NCBI GenBank assembly: GCA_002633005.1
Contig: NMRA01001141.1
Coordinates: 1-49,822, forward strand
Direction: 5' to 3'
Length of the DNA: 49,822 nt
Origin: Phoronis australis
Lineage: Eukaryota > Animalia > Phoronida
A program made the position numbers and the translations under genes. The notes below the pieces were generated by a model. The model did no database searches. It had not been told where the DNA came from and saw only the letters and a program-made list of their open reading frames with translations. Within the stretch, counting starts at the first letter, position 1; each line of letters starts with the position of its first letter. Shown here piece by piece: positions 8,975-30,879 of this stretch.

Positions 8975-9934
8975 GTGAATAATAAAACTGCGTTTGTTTC
9001 TGTTGAAAGGTTATTCCTTCTCTAATTCCTATTTTCCCGAAACTTGGAAACGTTGAAATAAGCATGTTTTCTCTCAACCCAACTTGTTTCTACCATGAAA
9101 TTGAGTTCACGGGATAGATGACTGGCAAGGCTGTTGCCACAAGTGGCCCGCTGTTAGAAATGTTGGCCAAATGCCAAAAAATGTTTTGCCATTTTGACAC
9201 TCATTTTTACTTGCCAGTACCCTGAACTGTCTGTTTGAGGGTGGAAGTTATTTTCCCCACTCTGTAGGGAGGTTTGAGGCATGCTTTTTTGCTTGGTTTA
9301 TAACTTACATTTTAGATGCTGATTAAAGAGGAAATGGAACTTAGCTGACCAAAAAGGGAAATCAATAATTAGAACGTGGCATCTGACCCCTACAAAATGG
9401 TGGATTTCTAGGAATGTCAAAAGTATTAGTTTCAGATGGTCAAACCTCACTGGACAAGCTACATTTCTATAAAACCATACTTGTATGTGTATGAGGTTTT
9501 TTTACCTTTGCGGAAATCCATGAGAGATGAGTGGTTTTTCTTTAGTTATTGAGCGCATGTGTTCGAGTACAGACCAGAGTCAGCACGTTTTTTTGGCCTT
9601 ATTTCTCAATTCCTCTTGTTGAATTTTAAAACCTATGCTGTCATGACTAGGAACATTTTAAGTGCATCTGGATAGACTTAGCTAATTTCTAGATGGGAAA
9701 TTTAGAGCAGCTAGTGGAAGGAAGTGCAGCTTTAAATTCGTGTTTGTATCTCACAATGTTTCACTTGGAATTATAGCCATGTACGATCTTCTCATCTAAT
9801 AGGCAGCTCACCACTGGTTTGCATGGAGCTACCTTCGTCAACGCAAGTGTCAATTCTAATTCATACTTTTCTAACAAATAATCCTTTCTTCGTGAACCAT
9901 CTGGTGAATGACAAGTCTCTTGATTTATTTCCAG

Positions 9935-10128
9935 GTGACTCCAAACCCAAAGAGCCGCCAGCGGCTGCAGAGGTGGACGTCTCACGACTGTTGTTCAAGG
10001 TTGGTCGCATCATCGACGTGTCTAAACATCCAGATGCTGACGGCCTCTATGTGGAGCAAGTAGAGCTGGGCGAGGCATCGCCGCGGACCATCGTCAGTGG
10101 ACTTGTGCAGCACGTACCCATTGAGGAG
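9935..10128 (+). CDS. AIMP1: AIMP1 coding exon 4 (start of EMAP-II/Trbp OB-fold tRNA-binding domain)
   Basis: [43 protein letters not shown]; acceptor ttccag, donor GAG|gttagt. Confidence 0.95.
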
Positions 10129-11117
10129 GTTAGTGTCCACCGATTTTGCTTTCAATATTGTGGAAATGTGCAATTTTCCGTTGTCATTTTTATCAGAAAT
10201 AGACATTACAGTTGAGCTACTTTGATTGGTCAAAAAGGGCCGGCTTAAAAATAGATATGATATTAATGAAGTTATTGATCGTGTCTAGTATATTGGGCAT
10301 GCCAGTGTCTATTGCCTTGGGACATACCATTTCACACAGTGGCGAGTGTCAAATGACTTGACTTAATTTTGCAATCCTCGCAAAAACAAGAGTTGTGCAG
10401 TAAGGTGAGGTGACACTTGTTCCAAGGGCGATACTGAGGTTGGAATGGAGTTCCTATATGTTGTTCTGGTTTATTTCATCTTTCTGTTAAGTAGGTCACT
10501 TTTGACTCGACAATGTAGCACTCACTGTAGTTATTACGCTTCTTGTTTCTATGGTATTATTGCTGGAATGTTGCTCATGCATGGTATTACGGCCTTCTTA
10601 AATTGCTTCATTCTCATTTGATCTTACTTTAGCGCTCAGCATGACTTTCAGAAAAGTCTTTCCTCATTCCCAGTGTGGTTTGTGCTGTACAGGTACCACT
10701 AAACAATAAACAGTTGGTTATCAAATTTTTTCAATTACTCCTTACAAACAAGGTAGCCGGCCTTTGAAATATAACGTGACTATTTTGATAAACTGTGTAA
10801 ACTAGTTAAAGAACTGTTGTGCAGTCCTACACAAACTGCTACTAAAACATGTCTGCAACAGGTGTGAGTCTGAATTTTTTCAAGAGTCCTGTTTCAGTCT
10901 TCTTTATTACTTCTTAAGTCCTTTATGTCTTCTTGGGATAGGATGAGACTATTGTCATCCTGACCTTTTCTTTTAATCTTAGACTTGTAGACCTGTTTTA
11001 GCAGCTGTCTGGATGAGGCTGTGAGACTTCACTTGTTTGAGGTATCGTGAAAATTGCAGTGCTTTTAGGGATATGACCATTGTGATAGTGAAGAATGACC
11101 GTGTTTTCTTGGTGCAG

Positions 11118-11286
11118 ATGCAGAATCGTCTTGCCATTTTCTGCTGCAACTTGAAGCCAGCCAAGATGAGAGGAATACTGTCACAAGGCATGATCATGTG
11201 TGCTAGCTCGGCAGAAAAGGTTGAAATAATCAATGTACCTGAAGGAAGCATACCTGGAGACAGGATCACATTTGACGACTATGCAG
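11118..11286 (+). CDS. AIMP1: AIMP1 coding exon 5
   Basis: MQNRLAIFCCNLKPAKMRGILSQGMIMCAS motif; acceptor gtgcag, donor G|gtactg. Confidence 0.95.
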
Positions 11287-11980
11287 GTACTGCTTTTTGT
11301 CCTCGCTTATATTCATTTTTTAGAATTTGAGTGCACGGCTGCTGGCTTGCAGAAGTTTTAGGGCAGTCTGTCAGGGCAGCAAAGTTGGTAACTTTATAGA
11401 AGTGTTTTGCCAGATAATATTGGTCTCTAGAATTGGGACTGGTTTCACCATCTACTGCAAACATGCAACACTTGACTATGAAAAGAATATTCATGAGATG
11501 TGTACTGTAGTTTACAGGCACTTTGCACTATTGTGAAATTACTTGTTCTCCAGCTAGGTGGCAGTAAAGGCCAATAGTCTTGTACGAGGCAAAAAAGTGA
11601 CCAAAACATTTTCTTTGATATGATTTAAATGAGTTTAAAATACTCTGCTGTTTAACACAATCATGAAGTTTGGCTTAGCAGCAGAATGTTCGGTTGCTAT
11701 TGTAGAGCAAATTGGTTTGTTTATATGCTACTACTAATTCTTGTAAAGTTCCTTTTCTCACCGAGAATGCCCTTTAAGATAATAACCATCACAGCAGCTG
11801 TAATGTTCCAGCCTGACATATGCACATTGTGGGTAAATGTTGATGAATATAGATTGATGGTGTAGTGCTTGGGGAGCACCCTTTTGCTCTAAATTAAGCT
11901 TAATATGTATAGGAACAAATTCATCAATGGCAGAAAAAGTGGAAACAGAAGAGAGTATGAATTTCCATTTCATATTTTAG

Positions 11981-12147
11981 GAACACCAGATGAGCAGCTG
12001 AATCCTAAGAAGAAGATATGGGAAAAAGTAAAACCCGATTTGCAGACAAACTCCGATCGTGTGGCCACCTACAAAGGATGTCCATTCAAGATTGAAGGAA
12101 AGGGATTTTGCATAGCACCGACTGCAGCTAACTCTGCTATTCAGTAA
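11981..12147 (+). CDS. AIMP1: AIMP1 coding exon 6 (terminal)
   Basis: GTPDEQLNPKKKIWEKVKPDL...TAA. The six exons total 951 nt = 316 aa plus stop, in frame. Confidence 0.95.
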
Positions 12148-12563: not shown

Positions 12564-13400
12564 TTTGGCCATCGATAAATTTTCGTCATTAATAATTAAT
12601 TCACGCTGTTAATAATAATTAATTTACCCTCGTAATTTACATTCTCTGCTTTCACTAATTTGGTCAGCAGTAGCTAATACGAAGACGACCTCGTTATTTC
12701 ATCTCTGGTGCCAGTAAGGGGTTAGATGTTGTTATACTGGCCTTAATGACACTAGTCGTGATTACAACTACATCTGAAAAAAAATCGTTTTTGCGAATTC
12801 TTAAACCACCTATCGCTGTACAATCCGTCTAATGTATTTACGCTCCTAACTATGCTAATGTATAGCAGGAATTTAGGACATTGCTGTTTGAACATCATCT
12901 GCGCTAAACAAAGGGTATTCACTGACAACTTAATAATGTGAAAACAAAAAATACAAATAAGTGACCTTTGCACTAATGATCGACATACCTTGGGGGTTCA
13001 CACAGCCCCCATCATGAAGTGTTTTCCCCCACGTCACGATAGTTACTGGACATGGTTGAGTGATATGCAGCGGATCATTTTCATACAAAACTCGTTCTAA
13101 ACATCTGACAATTTTCAACGTACTTCATATTCACATCGTGGCTATACGTTTTGGGTTTCTAACTAAATTGACCTTGCAAGCGCATAGATAAGGAAGTAGC
13201 TTGCAAGTTAGTTTTCCCTTAGGCCTTGGTCACCGTGATAGTACCGAGCGATGCTTGGTCGGTCAAGCTGATCGAGAGTTCTATCCCTATGCCAAGTGGC
13301 ACGGTGATCGGGCAATTTCTCATCGGATCGCCGCCAGTGACCAGATAACCCCCTTTTACTGCAGCAAACTCAATGGGTCGGCGTTTATAAAGTTTGTGTA
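12564..13400 (+). repeat. Interspersed repeat, copy 1 (empty-site copy relative to 46410-49075)
   Basis: Colinear similarity with 46410-47064 plus 48756-49075 (e.g. GTTTGGCCATCGATAAATTTTC; GCTGATCGAGAG; GATAACCCCCTTT). Confidence 0.8.
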
Positions 13401-14668: not shown

Positions 14669-14818
14669 CCGATAAATTGTTTCCTGGTTTTACAATGATT
14701 ATTGACATCGTTATACCCCCAGCAGTATCAGCATTTACTGTATGCCGTAGGAAGGTCAAATACTTTGCCATTGTTGCATCCTATTTAATCGCCCCAGTTT
14801 TCCTCTGTTTGACTCGAC

Positions 14819-14969
14819 TTAAACTGGAATACAGTCGCAAACTAAATGATACACCTTTGCTCTCTTCATTTTGTTATTTTCCGTATAAAAGCCGTAAGAA
14901 CGCTTCAGCACAGTATAACACCTGCCACGGAAGAGTATCCCATCTTTTCCCACTTCAACACAGTCAACA
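14819..14969 (-). CDS. Terminal exon of putative secreted cystine-knot (Spaetzle/neurotrophin-like) protein: VDCVEVGKDGILFRGRCYTVLKRSYGFYTENNKMKRAKVYHLVCDCIPV*
   Basis: Strong acceptor tttgtctttacag; phase 2 matches the upstream exon; ends in CxC then stop. Below the ORF-track size cutoff. Confidence 0.72.
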
Positions 14970-15111
14970 CTGTAAAGACAAACATTGTGTACAAATTACA
15001 ACAAGTGGATTTCACGGATGAAGAGTGTCGTTTCACTCAAAATGGGATTATAATTAAACAACAATGCGAACGGTGATAATGGATGATGAGTTGAAATAAC
15101 GTATTGTTCTA

Positions 15112-15763
15112 AATTCCCCTCGAACCCCACACCCGACGACCCCCATTACCCACAGCATCCCCGACCTGCGACAATAGAGGTATTTTTGGGCTTTTTGCAA
15201 ATTTCATGATCTTATTACATGTACGTCCCTGAGTTACTTTCTCATTAAACCTAACTACACGAATCTGCTCTGGCTCAAGGCTGGTAATTAAAACAGAAAG
15301 TGGCTTAAGAACGTGATCTGAAGTGGCGGATTGTGTCTATAGTCTACTATCGTTGTCACGGAAATAGTTCCACGAGCAACTACCAATGACCCTGTTCTAA
15401 CTTTGGGAGAGAGTACGTTAAACACATAATTTCATGTTTGTTTTGTTATTTGCTTTTTGTCGTATACTCCTTTACAACATAGGCCATGTAACTTTTACTG
15501 AAGAGCAGACGAGACGACTATACTCTGTAACAATGGTAGGTTTTTGATTTGATTTGATGTGGTCGCGTTTTTTTTTTTTGTTCTTGGCTTTCAAACTTGA
15601 CGAATCGATTCTCTTCATTGAAAAAAAAATATGTTCGGCGTTCTTAATACCAGCCAGACACAGCAAAACCGACGGTGAGTTGATAACCTGACTGAGCCGA
15701 ACCCCTTGGCTTTGGGTATTGTAGCTAGGTGATGGGTCGTCGGAGATGTGGTTCGAGGGGGTC
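15112..15763. mobile_element. Non-autonomous DNA transposon in the intron of the cystine-knot gene
   Basis: ~45-bp imperfect inverted repeat CCCCTCGAACC...CCGACGACCC / GGGTCGTCGG...GGTTCGAGGGG. Ends approximate. Confidence 0.6.
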
Positions 15764-15863
15764 TTAAAACAAGTTCAGGTTTAATTACATATTAATAATA
15801 CATAAAAACGGTTCCAAATGGTCAGTGCAACGGGTCCACCCGAACAGCCTGCACAAGTTGGCA

Positions 15864-16015
15864 CAGTGCTGTAGTGGGGCGTAGATGCACGTAGGCGCAG
15901 CCAACCACCTTTTGCCATTTGAACTTAACGCCTACGCACCGTAAGGTACGTTCAGTGCTCAAGGTGATACGGTGAGCTTTGGGCGCCTACTTACCTCTAA
16001 TTTTACCACGCACTG
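15864..16015. mobile_element. hAT-type MITE (second copy inverted at 41647-41792)
   Basis: CAGTGC...GCACTG termini; degenerate 8-bp TSD AGTTGGCA/GTTTGGCA. Confidence 0.8.
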
Positions 16016-16141
16016 GTTTGGCATAGCGTCTGCAATTGCGGTTTGGTCATTTGCGCAGATGAGTTGAAAAACCTTTTATGAGAAGAAGTCTCACGTGACA
16101 GTTGACGGGCATTCCCATAACAAGTTATAATTATTACTTAC

Positions 16142-16428
16142 GCGTTGAGCATGCACTTGTATGGTTGAAATGCTGTTATCAGGGTTCTATAATAACCCTT
16201 TTTATTCTTGACCTTTGTTATTTTACTCATCTCGCATTGGTCACATGGTATACGCTTCAAAGGGTAGTCCGGCTCGGGTTTAGGACGTTTTGTGGTAATG
16301 TCTGGGTAGGCTGTCGTCGTAGGCCTACTCGTAGAAGTAGTAGTCTGGGATCTCGTAGAAGTAGTATTCTGGGATCTCGTAGAAGTAGTATTCTGGGATA
16401 AGCCATTTGTGGCGAAAATCACCGTTGC
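16142..16428 (-). CDS. Internal exon of cystine-knot gene: end of signal peptide, Thr/Ser-rich repeats, KR site, start of Cys domain
   Basis: Acceptor tttctatatag, donor GC|gtaagt. Open frame ATVIFATNGLSQNTTSTR...PLKRIPCDQCEMSKITKVKNKKGYYRTLITAFQPYKCMLNA. Confidence 0.72.
16328..16399. repeat. 24-bp tandem repeat x3, coding (SQNTTSTR)
   Basis: CTCGTAGAAGTAGTA(G/T)TCTGGGAT x3; unit length preserves the reading frame. Confidence 0.9.
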
Positions 16429-16835
16429 CTATATAGAAAGTACATTTAGTTTAGACAAAACATAAAATGCTTAAAGTTACATTATCGATTGCCGAAAATG
16501 CAGCTTGGGGATAATTGTTGGTGGGGACGGGCTTTTTGAAGTTTTTAGGTTTGACTTGAGCTACAAAACAACGGATGCTGTGATTTTGTTATAAAATGCC
16601 AGTGCTCGCAGATGACTGCAAGACATTCGCTGAAATCAAGACAGGCATTTTTATCAAAATACGCTTTCAAAATAATAGGTTTTATATGCGCTAACTACAA
16701 AGCGATACCGAAGCTAGTTTGCAGTGAAACTACACATGAGGATGAGGTTAAAGGTCATATATATTATGACAAACTGTTGTAATACGGGTGTGTGACTGTC
16801 TGCCACAGATGCAGCAGAAAGATGCATCCGCCCAC

Positions 16836-16910
16836 CCAAAGAAGAGCGAGCGAAACGCAAAAATAGATTGTGTAAAATGGAGAATCAGTAGCTACGAAAA
16901 ATGACAACAT
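16836..16910 (-). CDS. Candidate signal-peptide exon of cystine-knot gene (MLSFFVATDSPFYTIYFCVSLALLW)
   Basis: Hydrophobic stretch ending at phase-0 donor TGG|gtgggc. Begins either at ATG 16910 or at acceptor tttttcgtag (exon start 16891). Confidence 0.45.
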
Positions 16911-17276
16911 GAAGTGGGACAGCTGGTTAAAATGACAATATAAAAACGTATACAAGACCCAACAAGGAGTCAAAATGAGAGTAACGTAAACTTAAAGGCG
17001 AAGGCAACCTTTTTTCATGTCACTTAGCAAAAATAAGGTTCGTTGATTATCCCAAACACATTTTTCACTTAATTACATCTTTTCGTAATTTGATTAATTT
17101 CTCGTCCTCTACTCCGGAAGTGACGTTTTGGGAGGCAAGAGTTTCTCGCCAATGTCTTTTCATTATAGCAAGGAGTGTAGTAGTATAGGAGAGTTCACTT
17201 GTGAGTTCGCTGTTACCGCTACTACTAGCGCGCCAAGTGCTGACTAAGCAACTGTCAACCAGGAAGCGCCAAAACA

Positions 17277-18200
17277 ATGGGGAAGGACGCATTTTGCAGT
17301 GCGATAAATTGCATGAATTCACCCACGAAAACCCCAGACGTGTCTTTTTTTAGGTTTCCTAAGGATCCAGAAAGGTAAGAATTATCTGTTATTCAATAAT
17401 ATGATACATTGTCTTTCATTTTGTGTGTTCTGTTCACGGTTGTTAGACAAGTCGATTGCAGTCCCGTTGCCACTGTTGTCTGCAGTGTAGGCTAGGCCTA
17501 CTGTATAGCCGGGCTGCCGGCGGAAGGACTATGATGAACGTACGATGTGATCGTCAGCTATTTGGATACTTGCAGTCCATGAATTCCAAATCAAAATGTC
17601 ACAGGTACGATCGCAGGGATAATTTTAGGAAAACATACCCATGCCCATGCCATGGGTAATATGACTGGTGATACGGCCATGCCACAATCACAGTGAGGGC
17701 CACAAGTCTGTCATTAGTCAAGTTAGAGATCTGTGGGTCTCGGTGAAAAGGTGAAAAAATCAACATAATTTTAATGTAGAGCGTCATCAAAAATTTAATT
17801 CTATGTGTCAATAATGCGGAGGCGCGGCCCTGTTAAAATATCCGTGGATCAACATTTGAGTCCGAGTTTTTTTCAGTTAATTTGACACCAAAACGCTTTT
17901 GTCTCTATCACAATCACAGTATGACAGGAATTCTGTAGTGTAGAGTACTTTAGTGTAGGCTACCAGTCTTCTGTGAACCTAGTGAGTATGAGGTTTGTTT
18001 CTGAGTCTCTCAGTCATTGATTTCTGTTCAGGTGCAAGCGCTGGGAGCTGACCTTATGAATAGAGATGCAGCCTATTTGTCCAAGAACTGCAAGTTATGC
18101 TCTCATCACTTTGAGGAGTCCATGTTCATGAATGAAGAACAAGCTGGTATTGACTGCAGTGCCCGAACAATATTTGATGTCGTGAATCCACCAAAAATGA
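17277..18200 (+). pseudogene. Two-exon THAP zinc-finger remnant of the P-like transposase
   Basis: Exon 17277-17374 MGKDAFCSAINCMNSPTKTPDVSFFRFPKDPER|gtaaga. Exon from 18032 reads CKRW / ADLMNRD...CKLCSHHFEESMF / AVP / TIF with frameshifts. Confidence 0.8.
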
Positions 18201-19441
18201 AGATGTCAGGGTCAAAAAGTTCTCCAGAAATTATATTACAGCTCTGGAGTAGGCTTTTTTGCATTTCTGATTATCATCTCACAAAGCAAGTACTGGAACA
18301 TCACGTGTAGAAAAGACAGTTAGTCAAAATCTAGTTTTCGTATTTTACTAAGGTTGATCAGATTGAAACATTTTATGAATGGTTAGCCTGTGATTTGGAG
18401 AGAGCCAAAATGAAACTGATGGATCATTCAGAGTCTGAGTGGTGGGCTGAAATTTTGTTAAACCCAAGCTATCCGCATCATTTTGCTTCTCGATGACAAA
18501 CATTTCTGTGAGTAAATTAGTTTTCAGCTTTACAACACATTTCTTTGGCGAAAGTGCTGTCTAGTGAATTAATAAAGAGTGACAAGGTTGGTCAGATTTT
18601 CTTGTAGTATTGATTGGTGTATGTGTTGCCTATTTTGTACGTTTTTCGAGTTTGTGATTAATTTAAGCCCCAGTTGTGGCTAGGTATCAAATATGATCTT
18701 GTGGTCTGGCTTTAACTTACCTGAAATATTTACTAATAGGAACAGTGGGTATATGAAATAAAATTTTGGTTTTATCATCCAAGTCTTTTTAATTCAATTT
18801 TGTATAAAGCTATGTGGGTAGTGAATATTTTGATTGCTGTTCAGTACCTCTTAATTTTTTGTCATGATATTTTGAACTTTGACTAGTTATGAGTGATGAT
18901 ATACTCAATGTTACTTCATTTTGTAAGTCGTGATCTATTCTACAGATTAGCAAGTGCCTTGTAACTGTTGGTGAGTGGGAGAGTGGAATTGAGTCCTATA
19001 CTGGCATGTCTACGAAATAATGGAATGTTCTAAAATTGTATTACAATTTTGTGGTAGTGACGAATTGCCTTGCTTTCTTCTTCTCACTTGTGTAACACCC
19101 ACTGCACAAAACAATTGTCTGCATTGCTAGTAGCCTGGTGCATTGAATACTAGGGAACACATGTGAAATTGTTGGGTGGAGATGAAACCAGCAGTGAGCT
19201 GGGAGCAACATGTTTGTCAATGGTCAGGGGAGCAACCAAAACGTGTGACGATGCGGGAGGGGCTCAACACCCATGTGGCATACATACCCATTGGTTTTTA
19301 CCTGTTCAGCACTCCTCTCATGCAACCACCCTGGGAGGGGGTCAACACCCATTTGGCGCCCACCTGGTTTTTGCCTGGTACCCCCTTAGCTGGCACCTGG
19401 GTGGAATTCCCCTCTGAACCCCCAGGAGCAATCATTCAAAT

Positions 19442-22400
19442 TGTTGAGAGCCTCACTCTGTATACGTTAGAGGGCGACACGATCGTCCGCCATCATTGGA
19501 ATAAACGACTTGAACGCGGTGTTGTAGTTGTCCGAACAAAAGACAAACTCACGGCTTAACTTGGTGTTAGGACGTGGACAATGAGTGAATCAAAACACCC
19601 AAAGCTTATTTTAGCCGAGGACAAACAACTTAGCGTAAAACTGCGGCGCAAAAAGTTCAACTCATGGTGCATCCTGCAGAAAGGCTGACGTGACCCAGAA
19701 AAACCAGTCACTGATCCACAGCACTGGAAAACTGACAAAGCGTCCCTCGAAATAGCAGCTGTCTATGTAGCACTTCCCGACGAAGTGCTAAACGTTTTTG
19801 ACACTACAACCATTAATCTCATGTCCGAGGATGAGCAAAAACAACCATGGTCATATTTGAATAGACTGGAGACCCAGTTCGCCGGCAAAGATGACATCAT
19901 GCCCCAGTGACAATTCTTTAACTTGACACAAAAGCCGAATGAATCTGTGACCGACTTTGAGACAAGAATTCGCACGGTTGCCGCAAACACTAAATACGCA
20001 GACATGACAGATCCTCTACAAGAACTAATGAGAGATAGATTCTGCACAGGAGTCCAAAATAAAGACCTACGAGAACAGTTGCTTCACTCATTTTAAAGAA
20101 GACGGTAAAACTCCTCTAACTTTCCAACAACAGTTGAACAAAGCCAAGTCCTGGGAGGCAGCACATAAAACCAACATGACTATCATGCAAGCAGTCAGTC
20201 TTGATGAACAAGATAATTTCGCAGGCAAACGCCATTATGAGAACAAGCCGGCACCGGCTCAGTCTCAAACGTCCCGGTGGTGCTTAGGATCACGACATTC
20301 TTGGAAAGATTGTCCTGCCAAGAAACCAGGAACTTGATTCGGCAGCAACATGCAACACACTTCCATTAAATATGTATCAAAAAATTGCCCCACTAAACAC
20401 ATTACTTTCATCCAAAGCAAAGATTTTCCCATACTCAGGCAGCCCAATAAGACCGATTGGGAGACAGTCACTGACGTGTGAGGGTAACAAAACCTTTGAA
20501 CTCCTTGAATTTCAAGTCATAGACCACAGTTACATCCCAAACAAGCCTGCACTTCTCTCTGGAGTAGCCAGTAAAAAAGGCCTCGTTACCTTTCACCAGT
20601 CCAAAGTATTTTCCTCTGATGGCACAAACATCACTGATCCACAGCCAAACCATCAACTACATGTACATGACCTATCCTCTGCAAAACCACCACAGCCCTT
20701 GCACAATACCTTAACCCCTGGTAAAATCACTAAATCCCAGTTAACGGATAACTTCAAGGAAAAATTCAAGGGTCTTGGGAAAATTGATAAGCCAGTGAAA
20801 TTCACTCTTGATGCCTCAGTACCCCCCATTCATGGCGGAATACATAGAATACAGCTAGGGAAAATGGATCAGGTTGAGGAAAGGCTCACAGAAATGGTCC
20901 ATGCTGGCAAACTAACGAAAGTAGAAGAGCCGACTGACTGGTGTAGCAATATGACAGTGCAAGAACGCAAACGTCCCGACGGCTCCACTAAAATACGCAT
21001 ATGTCTTGACCCGAGTCAAACACTAAACAAAGCAATTGTCATCCCAAAATACCAAGTACCCACACTAGATGAAATACTCCCCCATTTGTCTGGCAAGAGA
21101 TTCAAGACATTCTCAATATTTGATGCTCTTGATGGTTTTACCCAGGTTGAACTCGATGAAACGTCCAGTAAACTAACAACCATGCACACACCTTGGGGAC
21201 GATTTCGCTGGTTGCGCTTACCCTATGGTGTAAGCTGTGCCCCAGAAGAATTCCAGCTTAGAATACATGAGGCCTTGGCAGGCCTAGAAGATGACATACT
21301 TGTTATAGGTCAAGGTAACTCTCGGGAAGAGACTGATCGTACCCATGACTTAAGAGTGTTGTCCCTTATGGACAGGGCCAAGGAACGCGGCTTGATCACT
21401 GAACAAGGTGTCCAGGTTGACCCCAATAAGGTCAGAGCCATCACGGACATGCCCGTCCCAAATGACGAGAAAGCTCTACTAAGATTCTGTGGCATGGTTA
21501 ACTACCTCAACAGTTTCTGTCCCAATCTTTTGCAAACCATGCAACCACTTTTTGAACTCACGAGAGATGACCAAGAATTCATATGGTCAGACAAACATCA
21601 AACAGCCTTTATGATAGCAAAGAACCTCATATCTACAGCGCCCTGTCTCGCCTTCTTTGACAGAGCGAAAGACATCACACTACAAGTAGAGGCCTCCAAA
21701 GGAGGTCTGGGTGGCGCGCTTTTGCAGTGGTCAGCAATGAAAAAGGAATGTCTGGCAATCGTAGCGGTTTGCGACAAATGGGACCTTTGGCTTTATGGCC
21801 AAAGAGTTACCATCCACAGCGACCACTAACCTCTCGAAACAATCTTCAAGAAGCCTCTTCATTCTGCTCCCCAAAGACTTCAGCGAATGATGACGAGACT
21901 CCAACGATATAATCTCAGAGTTGTTCATAAAAAGGGGTCAACGATGTACATTGCCGATACCCTTTCAAGGGCAACATTAGACACTGTCAACGATTGTACA
22001 CAAACCAATCTTGAGGTGTTTCGCCTCAACCTAGAAGAAGACGCAATGAGCACAATTGCTTGTTTTAAATCACAAACATTTGATGAAATAAAACGTCACA
22101 CCTCAACAGACCCTGTTATGATGTCTCTTACCAGAACAATTATCACAGGCTGGCCAGACCAAAAGTCGTTGTTAGAAACTGGTCTTTCCCCTTTTTGGAC
22201 GTTCAGGGACGAACTGAGCGTTTTTGACGGAATTGTCTATCGAGGGTCTCAGATAGTTATACCACAACCTATTCGTAAACAGATGCTCTACAAGATTCAC
22301 ATTGCACATTTTGGTCCAGAGTCCAACATACGCATGTGTAAGGACATTTTGTTCTGGCCTGGAATGAAGAGCATGTGGTAAATGTGCACAGTTCAAAGCT

Positions 22401-23681
22401 CAGAACACTAAAGACCCCATGAGGACCCAACCTGTTCCATCCTATCCCTGGCAGTTTGTTAGCCAAGACCTGTGTACTTTCGAGTCAAACAACTATCTCA
22501 TAACAGTAGACCATTACTCAGACTTCATTGAAATCGATGAACTAGACAACACACTAGCTAGTACAATAGTTGACAAAACGGAAGCACATCTAGCACGTTA
22601 TGGGATACCGGAAATTTTATTGACAGATAATGGCCCTCAGTTCATTGCATGAGATTTTGAAGCCATGTGTTACAAACACAACATACAACATATAACTAGC
22701 TCTCCTTACTGGCCTCAGGGCAACGCGAAGGCTGAAGCCTCTGTCAAAATTATCAAGTCAATGCTGAAAAAGGCTGGAAAGCCCAACTGCAACTGGCATT
22801 GTTCAATCATAGGAACACACCACCGCAGGGCCACTCCCTTAGCCCGGCACAGCGTAGCATGGGAAGACACACTCGAGGTCTTCTACCTACATCCGGTAAG
22901 CAACTTCTACCCATTTGCCACGACCAGTCGCAAGTCCCTGACATTGTAGCTAAAAAAAGGCCCAGGCTAAGGCCTCATACGACAAACGTTTTGGAAACAA
23001 CAGATCCGAGAATGACTTAGTGCTTGTTGGCGACTTTGTCTACGACAAACCACCGCCTCACAAAAAGTCACAACCGTGGCAATATGGAGTCGTAACGGAA
23101 ATTCCAACTGCACGGTCTTACATTGTAGACACGCCAACCGGCATTTGGCAACAGAACAGACGTCATGTAAGATTAGCGGCTCTTCCACCACAAGGAACAC
23201 TTGTTCCTAAATCATGGAACCCGCGAGCATCCAACACACATACGCCACAACCAACCTTACCCGATACACAAAAAGAGCCCCAAATGCCAAACCTAACGTC
23301 TGTTCCCCGTCCACCTTCCCAACCCATTGCCAACCCACTACTACCTTCTGGAGCCACTTATGATTCTGTTAAGGATGCCAGTCAGCCCATGCCAGATTCG
23401 TCATCTGAATCCTTCAAGGAACCCAATACGAACCAGGTCAGGGCGTGTCTCCAAACCCCCACGAAGGCTGATAGAGACAATGTAGAATTCTTAGTGTTTT
23501 AAGTACGCGTAGTATTTTAAGTGACTTTCTATACATAAGAATTTTTTTTAAGAAAAGGGGATGTTGAGAGCCTCACTCTGTATACGTTAGAGGGCGACAC
23601 GAAAGTCCGCCATCATTGGAATAAACGACTTGAACGCAGTGTTGTAGTTGTTCGAACAAAAGCCAAACTCACCTCTTAACT
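19442..23681 (+). mobile_element. Ty3/Gypsy LTR retrotransposon (probably Mag-like), full-length but decayed
   Basis: 120-bp LTRs 19442-19561 and 23562-23681 (7 mismatches). TSD AAAT; PBS TGGTGTTAGGA at 19562; PPT AAGAAAAGGGGA at 23550-23561. Domain order RT-RNaseH-INT. Confidence 0.93.
19581..23502 (+). pseudogene. Disrupted gag-pol
   Basis: RT motifs IRICLDP, FDALDGFTQV, RLPYGVSCAPEEFQ, EDDILV; RNase H LQVEASKGGLG, IHSDH; integrase VDHYSDF, TDNGPQF, TSSPYWPQGN. Many stops, frameshifts and deletions. Confidence 0.92.
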
Positions 23682-24176
23682 AAATTATGTAGTCCATGGA
23701 GGTATGAACTGTTATAAGGAACGATAATTGCCGTGTTAAGAACTCAAACATGAAACAAAACCATGATGGATTTTGAAGGGAGCTTCAAGAAAATAAAAAC
23801 AAATACACTTTAATATTAATTAAAATACACATTTTCTTTCTCATTCTATTGTAAGTGGATGTTAGTTTATGTATTCTAACCACTTTCAATCACACAGTAG
23901 TTTTATTGCACGTTGAATGTCATTGAAGTATGAATTTATCAGTGTTTACATTGTTCGGATTGCGCTCCTAACTAAGTGTTGATTATTCACCGCTTGGGGC
24001 GCTAGTGTTTCGACTGGTACCCATTGTGGCGAATGGTAAAATGGCGGAGTGAACTCTCCTGTACTAGTACACTCCTTGATTATAGTCTGACTGTGAGAGC
24101 TGTCGAATCATTCATTGTTCTACCTCGTTTGTGATAAGTTCGGTCGTCGTTTGCTTTTGTTTACAAGTCAGTCAAC

Positions 24177-24890
24177 TTGCCACGTTGTTGCTGCGTGCCG
24201 GGATGTACTCATTATCGGCTCACACGCGCTTTGGGTACCTTGCGTCTCTTTCCGAAGGATGACACACTTCGACGTACTTGGTTAGCTCTTTCATGTGAAG
24301 AATGCAGCGTTACCCGTCCACGCAACGTACAAAGCAATGGAGGGTTACCGAATGTGTGGCAAGCATTTTCTGCCGTCAGATTATGACAGATATGTACGCT
24401 GAATTGATGAACAGTCGCTGTTGATTCCCGGCAGTGCCCCGTCGCCAACCCCGAGGAGTGCGTTTTTGAAGCGAGAGCTGTGGCCACTATATACAGTGAC
24501 TGGAGGCACTTCATCTACTGTTACCCGTGCCTCCGAACGTACCCCATTGCGTGCAATTCCGGGAACTAGCACTGAATCGCCCTGTGCTGTTGTCTCTCGC
24601 CCAGAGCCTGTAAGCAGCCCTGCAGCGATGCTGAGTAGTGGGAGTGAATACAGGCCCAGTTCGACACCCAGTGAAGAGGACAGTTCGTCATCCAATGAAC
24701 AGATCGTTTAGCCTAAGTTTGATAAGGTTATTGTGGACTTGTATTGGAGCTATTTGGAAGGTGCCAGGTGTGTTGCACGGGAGTCACACGGCGGGATGTA
24801 AGCAGTTTTTGTGCTCAGATCATCCTCCAGTGGGAGTGTGTCGCGGGACACTCGGGCAAGTGGGACAGTTCTTCCTCTGTACGTGAGACG
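24177..24890 (+). pseudogene. Kolobok transposase N-terminal remnant (THAP plus Cys/His motif)
   Basis: PRCCCVPGC...LFPKDDTLRRTW; ELFGRCQVC...WECVAGHSGKWDSS. Catalytic region absent. Confidence 0.7.
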
Positions 24891-27039
24891 ATAATGAGTA
24901 CACCCCAGTACGAAGCAACAGCGTGGCATGTTGACTGACTCGTAAGCAAAAGCAAAGGACGACCGAACTTATCACAACCGAGGTAGAACAATGACTGACA
25001 CGACTGCTCTCACAGTCAGACTATATGAAAAGAAATTGGCGCGAAATTCTTGCCTACCAAAACGTCACTTCGGGAGTAGACGACGAGTAATTAATTTAAT
25101 TACGAAAAGCAGTAAATAAGTGAAAAATATGTCTGGGATAATCAACGAGCCTTATTTTTGCTAAAAATGACATGAAAAAAGGTTGCCTTCGCCTAATTTA
25201 AGAGGAGTACAAAATTAACAAGGAGTGGTAATAAGCAAGGAATATACATAAGGCGACTTACACTGTATGCCACATAAGTAAAACATGCATACAGAAATAA
25301 ATATTTATCCGTGTACTCAGAAATACTTACAGACAAGGGAACATCGAACTGAGGTAATGTTAAATGGAAACATCTAGAATCCATGGTAAAACTTTTAACA
25401 TGGAGAGAATAACAATCGATAGACTAGGAAGTTAACCAACAACAAGTGTAACAAGGACTGAGATCGATAATTGCCCCGGAGTGAGAATACCGAAAAGTTT
25501 AGAGGTAGAGCGGTGATGAAAAGTAGCCTGTGCACTGGCAATATAGTTGGTCTTATGATTCAAAATCGGGATGAGTGAAACAAGATACTGGCAATACACT
25601 GTCAGGTGCCCTAGAGTGGAAAATGTTGGTGAGTGAAAAGGACAGTCAATACAGAAAATATTGGTGGGTGACACTGAACACTGCCAACACAGTTGCCCAT
25701 GACATGAAAATAGGTATTGAGATGGACAATGGCCCTTTGATGAAAGGTGAAGTTTGTGAGAGGAACTGGACACGGGCGAAAGAGTTGCCTTTTGATGAGA
25801 AAAAGTGTGATAAAGTTGAGCACTGGCAATATAGCTGCTCGAGACGGAGGGTTAAGGTAATGTGTGAATGGTAACGTTTGTAACGGGGAAGTGTAGGGAT
25901 GAGAGACCAATGCAGTTTCTGAGAGCGTTGAACTTCGAGCGACCCATACTCTGAATGGTCGAGTCAGGGATCTGGAGAGTCGCAGCGGTTGTGGCTGCGC
26001 CAATATGGAAACTGAGATTTTAAGTATTTGGGATCGTTACTGCATTGCTACTTGGCTCAACGGCTACTAATGCAGAGTTCATGGGTTCGATAACGCGCTA
26101 CTGCTGATTTATATAAAACTGTTAAATTTTCTCGTTAAGCAGCAAGAGGCATTTGGGCTTGAAGGCATCCACACTAAATATATTAGCATTCCATATGTTT
26201 TGATGGCCCTCTGGGAAAGCAATACTGTCACTGAAGGGGTCACCCTCATTTTAAATATAACAATAAATAAAAAATATATAATAAATAAATATACTTAAAA
26301 TGAAGCTTTTGATGATACCGGTAATAGAAAACGTTCAATCTGGCTGGGACATTGGCTGTGTAATTTAGTTGTTTCTGACTTCTCCTTTGAAAATCTTCCT
26401 CACTTTGTTACAACGATTAATACCATTCCAACTGCAAAATGTATTACAGTGTTATCACAAACTTACCAAAATTGCCCAGAAGAACATGATTTGCCACCAA
26501 AGACGACTCGATCACGGAGACGCAATATATTATTTCTCTAGCTATTTATAATGAACACGCAAACAATGACGGGACGTGATTGGATGAAACGTTTTTTTTA
26601 TTTTTACAGTAAGTTACGCTAACTGAACAGGGTACGTTACGTCACCTATTTGCGGAGGTGGTTTTAGTCAATTCCGCACATTTGAGTTCACATGCCTCAT
26701 ACTACACTAAATGTCCCAAATAGGTGTCCTAATAGTTTCCCTCTCACTCCATTAGAATGTAAGGCTTACTTGAGTTACGTGTGAGCAAAGCACCACAAAA
26801 TGTTGCTTCGTTTGCAGTGCACCGTGCTGTATGGGGTATTTTTACTACGCTTGAGCGTTTCCTCCTTCACTAACTTGGATGACGGAGGTAGATATTAGTA
26901 AACACTGAGTTTCGCCAATTTTTAATGAAATTGGGGTAGTTAAATTAAACCTTGACTCAAAAATCTATTTAGTGCTACCAAATTCACGTTCGACTGACTC
27001 CGAACTAGGTCCACGAATTAAGCAATAACAGCTCATTCT

Positions 27040-27260
27040 TTTAAATGACTTATTCTTACAGAAATGTCAAAGATAAGAAATCCAATTTTGGGTGTCAAAA
27101 GTGGGGTTACCGATAAGAAGCTCCGCCTGACAGCAGCTGAAGAGCAGGGGGAATCACTACTTATATAGGTGCGCCCGCTCTTCAGGTGGAGGACCCACGT
27201 TGGAGGCTCGAAATTGAATGTCTTGCCTATGACATTTCAATAAGAATAAGTCATTTGAAA
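27040..27260. mobile_element. Fold-back/MITE-like element
   Basis: Inverted repeat AAATGACTTATTCTTA..GAAATGTCA / TGACATTTC..TAAGAATAAGTCATTT, with inner hairpin CTGAAGAGC...GCTCTTCAG. Confidence 0.6.
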
Positions 27261-27562
27261 TAATAAAACATTTTACGTTCTCAGAAAATATAATAAGATA
27301 AAAGGTCATTCATTATGAGTATGAGTAAGATAAAGAAGTACAATAGAAAATCACAAAAAATGGTATAGACTGGGAAGATGAGCGGTCAAAAGCGCCAGGT
27401 TACCATTAAACAAAATATACAAAAATACACAAAAAGGCAAAAAATGCATAGAGTAATAGGATATTGAGGTAAAACTAGAGGTGGGAATGGGAACGATAAT
27501 AATTTGCGAGAAAAAATTGAGAATGTGTATCAGCTGAGGAGGGATAAAGGAGACCTGCTTCC

Positions 27563-27703
27563 CGTTCAGTAACACTAGGACCTCGCTAAAAAGCAAGACT
27601 TCGCGAGATTACGTGAGATATCGCCGTGCATTTTAATTAAGAACACTTGACTTTGATTAGGTTTTAGCTAGGTCCTATCGTAGGTCCTAGCGTCTACTGA
27701 ACG
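27563..27703. mobile_element. MITE (family of 14062-14200)
   Basis: CGTTCAGTA..CTAGGACCT / AGGTCCTAG..TACTGAACG termini and shared internal sequence. Confidence 0.7.
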
Positions 27704-29528
27704 CAAGCCTGGATTGAGTTTAGTAGCTGTCGCGCGGCGAGAGGGCAAACAAAGGGACCGTGTGGTAAGAATACGATTAAAAGGAAGAACGGATATGGAT
27801 GTAGAAAAGTTCAAATGTGAATTGATCAGTTCGTGACATAGGGGTGAATGGTTGATTGGCACTAGAGAATAAAAAAGTAAACGGAAGTTCATGTGCTCAC
27901 ATATACATATGTAACAAGCGAAATACCATTTATGTTTGAGTGACTCGTGTGTCATGGAAAAACAGGAAACCCTGGTGGGTTCACGAAGAAGACTCGTTCC
28001 CAAATATTAAAACAAGGAGCACGTAGACGATAAAAGGACATTTTTATGACGATGAATAAGAGAAGAGAGTACAATGGAAAAAGATAGAATAAACAGGAAA
28101 ATTACAAAAATGTAATACACAGTGAGAAGATGGCAAACAAAAGCACCACAAGGGACGCTCTGGTCCATAATGCTATTTTGAGACTTGTGAGGTATTGATA
28201 AATAGCGAACTATTTAGAAAATAACGTGTTATTTAAAGGAGTAGGAAACTATTTCTAGAAATTTGCAATAAAAAATTTTGAATGCTAAATACAGGAACTT
28301 AAGTAAAACCCTTTAATTTAACTAAATCGTGAACTATGAATTTGCAATAAATTTACAAATGGTACTCCATGGAACAACGTCACGTGGGATGATGGTGGGA
28401 TGTTGTTAACATTCAGCGAACAATTTTTCATCTAATTGACCAATGGAAATAACTTACTATTTAGTTACCAAAATTGGTGTCTTTGTGTACTGCAGTGGCA
28501 ATAACTAATCAGCTTTTTAAAATAAATAACGGGGTTGTATAGTTCCATCAGCTGCACATTATTACATTAACAACACCTAAGGAGCTTAACATTATCACTG
28601 GCCATCCATCAAACGTGTTATGACGGTGTTTCCTCGTACCAGGAAATTTAACGAAAACAAAGTGTTAAAAGCATCTTCCCTGCTCACTGAATTAAATCCC
28701 AGACTTAGAATCATTTTTGTCCCTGTTATGTTTGCCTTATTTTACACCAAGTGTTTTTTATTACGGTAAATTAATTCATTTAATATGCACAATTCTGTCT
28801 CGACGTGCTTGGTTGGTGAGTTAGAAAATAGTCTCCCAGCAAACCATGCAAGAAATATTACAATAAAATCACACCATAAATAAGATTTTAAGCAGACTTA
28901 GACAGACATATTTTCCCCTCGCCCTAACGTAAGTAGGCTGGTTTGTTGATAAAAAATGTAAACCTGAATAAAAATCCATTTTGTTTAATAAATCGTTTAC
29001 TTTTCCACTTTCAAAGGTTTCTTCTCGTTTATTTTTCTTACAAAGGTATTATTGCACACATACTTTACGGTCGGTGACGTGTAATTTTTTGCATGAAATC
29101 AGGTCAACCGCTACAGAGTGGAGCCTGTTCCAACTGATACAGTGCGTTTCTCAGTTCTACTAAGAGTTGCATTTTCATAACCGATATTGTCCAAAAGAGT
29201 CACTGTTCACGGTGAATATTTAAAAAAGAATAAAAATGCGCAGCCTATCTTTGTCATTTAAATGTACTGATCAATTATTTTATTTTTGAAAAAAATCGCA
29301 AAAACTGGTTATTCGGCCGAAAAATCAATAACGTACTTATAATATACAAAATTTGAAAACAAACTACATAAACGTTGCTGGCCGGTATTAATGCCATTAA
29401 ACACAAGTGTACCTTGCCTTGGACTGTTTTAACGTGTTACAAAGTCCATAACCTATCAGCTCTGCACTGAAACTTGGTGTGTTATAACTTTACCCAAATA
29501 AAGATCGGACTATATTGGCAGATCTGGT

Positions 29529-29634
29529 AGATTTGTCGCGCGTGAACTTAGAATAGACAGTGGAGCAAATACCGTAGAGAGGCTTCTTTGAGTGAACTCA
29601 GAATAAACTTCTATCCCAAGTTCACGCGACATCT
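29529..29634. repeat. Short inverted-repeat element
   Basis: TGTCGCGCGTGAACTTAGAATAGA / TCTATCCCAAGTTCACGCGACA. Confidence 0.6.
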
Positions 29635-30879
29635 TGTGTGTAAGCTAAGAAAATAGTCGTCGTGAGCAGAAAGGCACTGGTTGACATAAACACTAAGCCT
29701 ATATAGCTTGCTTGTCGTGAGTAAGTGTTTCTGTTTCAATTATTACTATTATTCGTTTTGTATGTTATTCCGGATTGTGGAATGTATGTGTAACGTATCT
29801 TTCTTCTCTCCTTGTCTCTCTTTGACTACTCCAATAAAACCGCGGTGCGTAGTCCTAGAGATAGCAACTCATTAAAAGTCGTTTTTTGTCGTGGCATAGC
29901 CAGAAGTATTCAACAGAGCAAACATAAAGTTGGTGACGGAGGGAGAGGGTGGGCGCTGAAGTGAGTGGTAATCTGGTGGCACTTTGCAATGACGTGGATG
30001 AAGAATAAAGTGGCAAAATAGCAATTTTAAAAATACTAATTTTATGTTACCTGAATATTAGTTTTTCATTGGTATGCAGCATGATGTCAACAGGTGTAAA
30101 TGTTGTAGACACTTGCTATAGAGCACAACTTTCTCGAACATAAATGATATTTCAACTCTTAGGTTTTGAAGGGTGGTGATTGGACCTTGTATGATCGAAA
30201 GTATTTTTCGGTGTTTTTGCGTGTTCTCTGGTGCAGACTGACATAGCAATACACATTAGCGCGTAAATACTTTGCGATACACATCACAGCCTCATCGAAA
30301 TAATACTGGGTGGTTCACTTGTTTTTGCACAATATATTTCACAAATCACTGTCCAGCATTCGCTACAAGAAAATCAACCTCGTACGACTGACTCAAGCAG
30401 CATATGAGTTCACTGCATTCACGCAGTCGCCTTTTTAGGTTTTAAAAACAATGCATTCTGCTCTTAATCACAGCGCAAAGTGTGATTTTTGCTTGTCTCG
30501 TTTTATTTATGTCTCAAATAAATTGTTTTTAAACCTTAAAGAGGCTCACTACTAAAATGACGACTGCGTGAATAAGGTCTGTATGTATCTTTTCTGGGTT
30601 GTCTAGAAATCTGAAGACAACTGAATTGAATCTTGATGGCATAATGTTTGATGCAAATATGCCCCGCATTTGAGTGAGGAGGATACGGAGGTAATGACAA
30701 ATATAAATTGTGCACAAACATGAAAAGCCTATTTTCTGTGACTAGCTTGCTCAAAAACTTAGGATTGAATTGTTTTGAATGAAACTGAAGTTCCATAAAA
30801 AGTCAAACATTTTACAAAAGCCCTGAAAATACTGCTTTAAGCGCTGCTTAAACTTCGAATCATGCAGAAAACGATCGTG

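Follow-up and report, generated by a model that had tools for sequence, protein, structure and literature searches.

A spliced gene lies on the minus strand of contig NMRA01001141.1 of the phoronid Phoronis australis (assembly GCA_002633005.1), within the 49,822-nucleotide (nt) stretch analysed here, hereafter the window, which has a GC content of about 40%. A preliminary description, made from the sequence alone, had joined two minus-strand exons into a peptide and proposed that it is a cystine-knot ligand resembling Spätzle and the neurotrophins. Both exons and the joined peptide were reproduced: exon 2 (16428-16142) is flanked by an AG acceptor and a GTAAGT donor, the coding part of exon 3 (14969-14819) follows an AG acceptor, and the two, 287 and 151 nt long, join in frame and end in TAA. 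Exon 2 encodes the predicted end of a signal peptide, a Thr/Ser-rich linker, a Lys-Arg pair at residues 65-66 and the first three cysteines, while exon 3 encodes the remaining four, the stop codon and a predicted long beta-hairpin. The 3' untranslated region (14818-14663, minus strand) ends near an AATAAA at 14668-14663; this signal, earlier placed directly after the coding sequence, is present but lies 150 nt downstream of the stop codon. No second copy of the gene was found by tblastn inside the window.

Between 16141 and 12200, frames ending in Cys-x-Cys (CxC) are opened by two of 223 acceptors, and 15 of 200 shuffles of this interval yield at least one exon ending in CxC. The second candidate exon of this kind, at 12965, was excluded because it lies beyond the AATAAA. 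A CxC-ending last exon is only modestly unusual by pattern alone, and it is therefore RNA that carries the case for the gene. Four RNA runs were chosen by species label: X1, X2 and X3 are raw-read runs, about one-fifth of each of which was examined, and X4 consists of contigs whose origin from RNA is a guess. In X3, 22 reads fall on 16090-16500, eight with at least 99% identity and 14 with 90-95%. Depth is confined to 16143-16428, drops to zero in the intron bins on either side, and comes nearly entirely from pairs whose first mate is on the plus strand. As a strand control, the plus-strand splice joint at 17372-18030 (GT..AG) of a THAP gene has its first mates on the minus strand, so the RNA of the gene under study is minus-strand. 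Within 14707-14907, X3 reads lie solely on the expected strand, at a depth of 2.45. The hidden spliced gene is real.

The exon 2-exon 3 junction had been predicted at 16142^14969. Four X3 reads from a diverged copy pass from 16143 into letters that resemble the start of exon 3, in frame and with the Cys codon retained; compared by eye, 15 of the 16 letters adjacent to the joint agree, as do 21 of 29 when no gaps are allowed. The matching junction is thus spliced in a diverged copy, but no exact-copy read across it was seen among the reads placed on 16090-16500, an interval without exon 3, or among the 15 of 22 joints listed from a wider stretch. X1 contributed three reads on the linker within 16090-16500, all at 90-95% identity, and X2 had none on 14707-15108 or 16114-16515. 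One X4 contig spans 14676-14886 with a single difference in 211 letters at a depth of 2,296, its match stopping at 14676. Linker-like X4 pieces have depths of 50, 6,909 and 7,556, and nothing in X4 matched the remainder of exon 2 at 90%. This pattern may reflect a gene copy that combines the same 3' end with a diverged front, or mere filter holes. X4 contigs of very great depth (about 7,000) are similar to the Thr-rich linker (16286-16332) but go on into a different repeat, which suggests highly expressed relatives with other linkers.

The diverged class of reads may represent a paralogue or a very divergent allele. The eleven read differences listed affect 10 codons; apart from one linker site, three codons change synonymously and six by replacement, which is close to neutral, and no positive selection is claimed, the most diverged part lying outside the comparison. 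In the diverged copy, a synonymous change leaves Cys72 in place, the listed differences spare Cys69 and Cys99, and inspection by eye shows the Cys106 codon to be retained. The loose ends of these reads suggest two in-frame three-base deletions in loops (by eye, four reads each) and linker repeats that differ from those of this copy.

The first coding exon is likely at 26487-26467 (minus strand), a candidate that comprises ATG and six mostly hydrophobic codons, is in phase 0 and ends at a GTAAGT donor. It sits 56 nt below a TATA box, TATAAATA (26550-26543), with a CCAAT box (26583-26579) further up; the two motifs make up a candidate core promoter at 26583-26543 on the same strand. Joined to the start of exon 2, this exon would yield a 16-residue leader that is hydrophobic and has a suitable (-3,-1) site. 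Among 349 phase-0 ATG..GT candidates on 16429-30800, four have a perfect donor, and only 26487-26467 combines it with a hydrophobic leader and a TATA box; the other three show weaker hydrophobicity and no TATA box. In shuffled sequence, donor and hydrophobicity occurred together in 39 of 200 cases and all three features in 2 of 200, the criteria having been fixed after 26487-26467 had been seen. The signal-peptide exon had originally been placed at 16910/16891-16836 (minus strand), probably about 9.6 kb from its actual position. The donor there is weak (GTGGGC), none of the 15 of 22 joints listed leads to it, and reads just below it, on 16699-16820, map to both strands with near-fixed differences, as a dispersed repeat would produce. 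A further hydrophobic, signal-peptide-like stretch at 28110-28175 (minus strand) starts with ATA instead of ATG and ends in a stop codon; considered as a first exon near 28170, it offers by eye neither an ATG nor a phase-0 donor, and it is possibly a chance occurrence or a dead exon.

With this first exon, intron 1 would span about 10 kb and be full of nested transposons. The nested block (16996-25194), delimited by self-BLAST, open reading frames (ORFs) and the THAP splice joint, has inverted ends at 16996-17168 and 25021-25194 (89% over 175 nt), the left end following TTAA. It carries the spliced, transcribed THAP gene on the plus strand, whose reads are mostly 90-95% alike and therefore come from many copies; the transposon is presumably Kolobok-like. 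A Gypsy-type long terminal repeat retrotransposon (19442-23681) is inserted in it; its direct repeats (19442-19561 and 23562-23681) are 94% alike, and its pol is broken (ORFs 20288-23502). A second inverted pair (24081-24223 and 24883-25025, 90%) accompanies the start of a short THAP-like ORF at 24138-24386. The position of the block raises the question of whether the transposons have separated this copy from its promoter and left it a duplicate in decay, with the RNA coming from other copies. The 8 kb of transposons upstream, the 14 of 22 X3 reads that are only 90-95% alike and the lack of an exact read shown over the junction would fit such a history. However, the other eight reads are at least 99% alike and stop at the acceptor (16428), and neither the frame nor the splice sites nor the promoter-like motifs are damaged. 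This is the least probable of the explanations considered.

Two other genes were recognized in the window. Spliced exons resembling AIMP1/EMAP-II (9736-12147, plus strand; tRNA_bind E values of 9e-12 and 9e-13) lie tail to tail with the knot gene. A ZIP zinc-transporter exon (31719-30880, minus strand) has its best named relatives in a clam (44% identity) and a ribbon worm (41%), with no closer full-length match, a result that probably points to a lophotrochozoan whose own proteins the database lacks. It matches only up to residue ~251-260 of homologues of 367-377 amino acids, the frame runs into a stop codon, and tblastn with four of 71 homologues found no C-terminal exon in the window; either the ZIP gene is therefore truncated or the assembly lacks this exon.

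The three-exon model predicts a protein of 152 residues, made up of the 16-residue leader, a 46-residue linker, Lys-Arg 65-66 and an 86-residue domain with a predicted isoelectric point of 9.3. The linker is partly encoded by a 24-nt tandem repeat (16399-16328 on the minus strand; 3.0 copies, 97%), is 48% Ser and Thr over residues 17-62, and contains two N-glycosylation sequons. The seven cysteines, the terminal CxC and the dibasic site just ahead of the domain that were noted at the outset are all found in the joined peptide. The cysteines are at positions 69, 72, 99, 106, 120, 147 and 149 (spacings 2-26-6-13-26-1), with Lys-Arg two residues ahead of Cys69. By pattern, six of the seven are spaced for I-IV, II-V and III-VI pairing, with CxC at V-VI and no CxGxC motif. 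The odd cysteine is N-terminal, either Cys69 or Cys72, and three residues from Cys I. A KNxxG segment had also been noted after the first knot cysteine; it is present in this copy, but its Asn is seemingly lost in the diverged copy (a 10-letter loose end, four reads, by eye).

Structure prediction and homology searches were applied to each exon-encoded half separately, which removes most of the power of fold and profile searches. For exon 3 alone, AlphaFold2 gave a predicted local distance difference test score (pLDDT) of 92, with strands at 2-6, 12-30 and 33-48 that would place Cys IV opposite the CxC; the exon-2 half (pLDDT 70) was modelled with four short strands. Among the 46 Foldseek rows listed, nine are cystine-knot proteins (TGF-beta, von Willebrand factor CK and IL-17), all with E values of at least 1.7. 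The Foldseek and VIA searches returned nothing significant and listed no Spätzle or neurotrophin chain, a result that does not exclude them. Structural comparison, suggested as a check in the preliminary description, has thus provided the long hairpin but no significant fold match, and the profile check proposed there gave no Pfam match for either half at E values up to 5, including Spätzle (PF16077) and NGF (PF00243). Co-folding of the two halves scored 0.02, an uninformative value used neither way. The best hits in a search of PDB sequences had E values of 0.62 and 0.28 and were unrelated proteins, and Atlas searches with the halves gave no significant match. Exon 3 had no hit at E ≤0.001 against 1.84 billion representatives and no homologue among proteins of 87-2000 amino acids. 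No homologue of the exon-2 knot half was found among proteins of 169-2000 amino acids, a size range that misses a 152-residue relative. Two metagenome scans gave 360 and 564 pattern matches, none confirmed. No published description of this gene family turned up in a literature of which coverage was partial.

These blank or non-significant searches are what would be expected if the protein were a different disulfide-rich beta protein, its likeness to knot cytokines being a coincidence of cysteine spacing, and a long hairpin is present in many folds. While the searches are consistent with this explanation, half-domains give them little power, and a knot agrees with the layout of the precursor as well as with the CxC at its end, the spacing of its cysteines and the hairpin. 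A different fold is unlikely. The cysteine spacing and the predicted long hairpin fit an NGF/Spätzle-type cystine knot. The original proposal of a secreted cystine-knot precursor stands with regard to layout and cysteine pattern; the fold is still a prediction.

Our preferred reading, held tentatively, is that this spliced, expressed gene with diverged copies encodes a predicted secreted precursor with an NGF/Spätzle-type knot domain that would act as the ligand of a leucine-rich-repeat receptor. The precursor would be secreted via the signal peptide begun by the candidate exon 1, its Thr/Ser-rich linker may be glycosylated, and a cut at Lys-Arg would free the basic 86-residue domain. This domain would fold with I-IV, II-V and III-VI pairing, Cys72 or Cys69 serving as Cys I, and its odd N-terminal cysteine would link two chains. 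The receptor that it signals through would be one with leucine-rich repeats, probably of the Toll rather than the Trk type. It most likely works like Spätzle, as a precursor that is released by proteolysis to give a knotted, probably disulfide-linked dimer with an extracellular partner, and likely represents a new, lineage-specific variant of the Spätzle/neurotrophin-like ligands.

A Toll-type ligand is, however, only slightly ahead of a second, less probable but still serious explanation in which the knot fold holds but belongs to a protein that a gland secretes in bulk (as mucus, adhesive or matrix, or for clotting or defence), a stable, basic, cross-linking scaffold with a glycosylated Thr-rich spacer rather than a receptor ligand. 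Expression is very uneven, with exon reads in X3, none of this copy in X1, none at all in X2 and depths in the thousands in X4; interpretation of this pattern is limited, since contig depth is not a measure of expression and the runs are of unspecified tissue. The variable linker repeats, many replacement changes and high predicted isoelectric point would also suit a bulk secretion, although insect Spz1 likewise diverges fast (PMC8296651). Horseshoe-crab coagulin, a bulk protein of related fold, would provide a precedent. A link between coagulin and Toll is mentioned in PMC6043800. The Lys-Arg pair directly ahead of the domain fits regulated release.

A more far-reaching reading, which we consider rather doubtful, is that the gene belongs to a fast-diverging, probably spiralian Spätzle-fold family of self-made ligands for Toll-like receptors. 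Its members would form dimers by means of an N-terminal cysteine, bear a mucin-like spacer that varies and swap segments from one copy to another, as the near-identical 3' end with a diverged front may indicate. In these animals, Toll-like receptors are commonly taken to detect microbes directly, and records of Spätzle-type ligands beyond the arthropods are few. A 2009 search of three lophotrochozoan genomes yielded no Spz (PMC2772990), and none was found in the nemertean Lineus ruber, for which direct pathogen sensing was suggested (PMC9835746). A clam Spätzle homologue is cited second-hand in PMC8637286, so Spätzle-like genes in molluscs have some precedent. A family this divergent escapes sequence searches, and the recorded absences may therefore be failures of detection. 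If the fold is true, the gene is a candidate for asking whether invertebrates other than arthropods make ligands for their own Toll-like receptors or, alternatively, an example of a growth-factor knot reused as bulk secretion. If it is not confirmed, the protein is one more orphan secreted protein.

Drosophila Spz1 has inner cysteine spacings of 6 and 13, equal to those of this protein. Comparison with Spätzle (PF16077; Drosophila Spz1 C106, Aedes Spz1C) reveals a shared layout of signal peptide (predicted here), unstructured pro-region, protease site (here the candidate Lys-Arg) and C-terminal domain with seven cysteines, a terminal CxC and an intron within the domain. Here, in contrast, the pro-region is much shorter and made of Thr/Ser repeats, the first finger is shorter, the odd cysteine lies near Cys I, and there is no Pro just before Cys V. 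Position 136 of the Spätzle alignment presumably falls just before Cys V, and the six residues ahead of Cys V contain no Pro in this protein. In PMC2772990, Pro at that position is stated to be kept in all Spz, and Spz1 and Spz2 carry one extra cysteine, adjacent to Cys V, for a covalent dimer. Val precedes Cys147 here, and the seventh cysteine, initially equated with Spätzle's dimer cysteine, is therefore not its positional counterpart. Mosquito Spz1C has a second inter-chain bond (PMC9427763), so dimer cysteines can vary. The layout predicted here, with signal peptide, low-complexity pro-region, dibasic site and C-terminal Cys domain, is that of Spätzle and neurotrophin precursors in PMC2772990 and PMC9427763, the latter adding that the Spätzle pro-domain is unstructured and cleaved at the knot boundary.

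The neurotrophins (NGF/BDNF/NT-3, PF00243) and the lophotrochozoan forms in PMC2772990 share with this protein a six-cysteine, knot-compatible pattern without a cysteine doublet and a dibasic site ahead of the mature domain. True neurotrophin signalling via Trk/p75 would agree with the absence of an extra cysteine beside Cys V, with the aromatic residue that stands four positions ahead of Cys IV, a feature of the neurotrophin motif, and with the presence of neurotrophins and Trks in lophotrochozoans (same source). It is nevertheless very unlikely: the consensus motif around Cys III-IV quoted there is absent, Cys III and IV being 13 apart rather than 11, and even a half-domain would be expected to match Pfam NGF or database homologues, which none did. 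The seventh cysteine, a shorter Cys I-II stretch and fast divergence between copies also set the protein apart. Judged by these sequence features, the product is not to be filed as Spz1/Spz2 or as a neurotrophin.

PTTH carries an inter-chain cysteine just before Cys I. The full six-cysteine knot pattern is a likeness to the Trunk/PTTH/IL-17 type T1A of PMC11087794, which defines the knot pairing as 1/4, 2/5, 3/6 and lists Trunk, Spätzle, NGF, PDGF and TGF-beta. Daphnia has expanded, divergent Spz families, and its Spz7 and Spz8 are, like the present gene, lineage-specific, multi-copy and divergent, with extra cysteines (PMC2772990). Their extra cysteines lie between Cys III-IV and IV-V whereas here the extra cysteine is N-terminal. 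With this comparison in mind, the gene family has the look of an expansion that is specific to its lineage and under weak constraint; the likeness to Spz7 and Spz8 of Daphnia is one in kind rather than in sequence.
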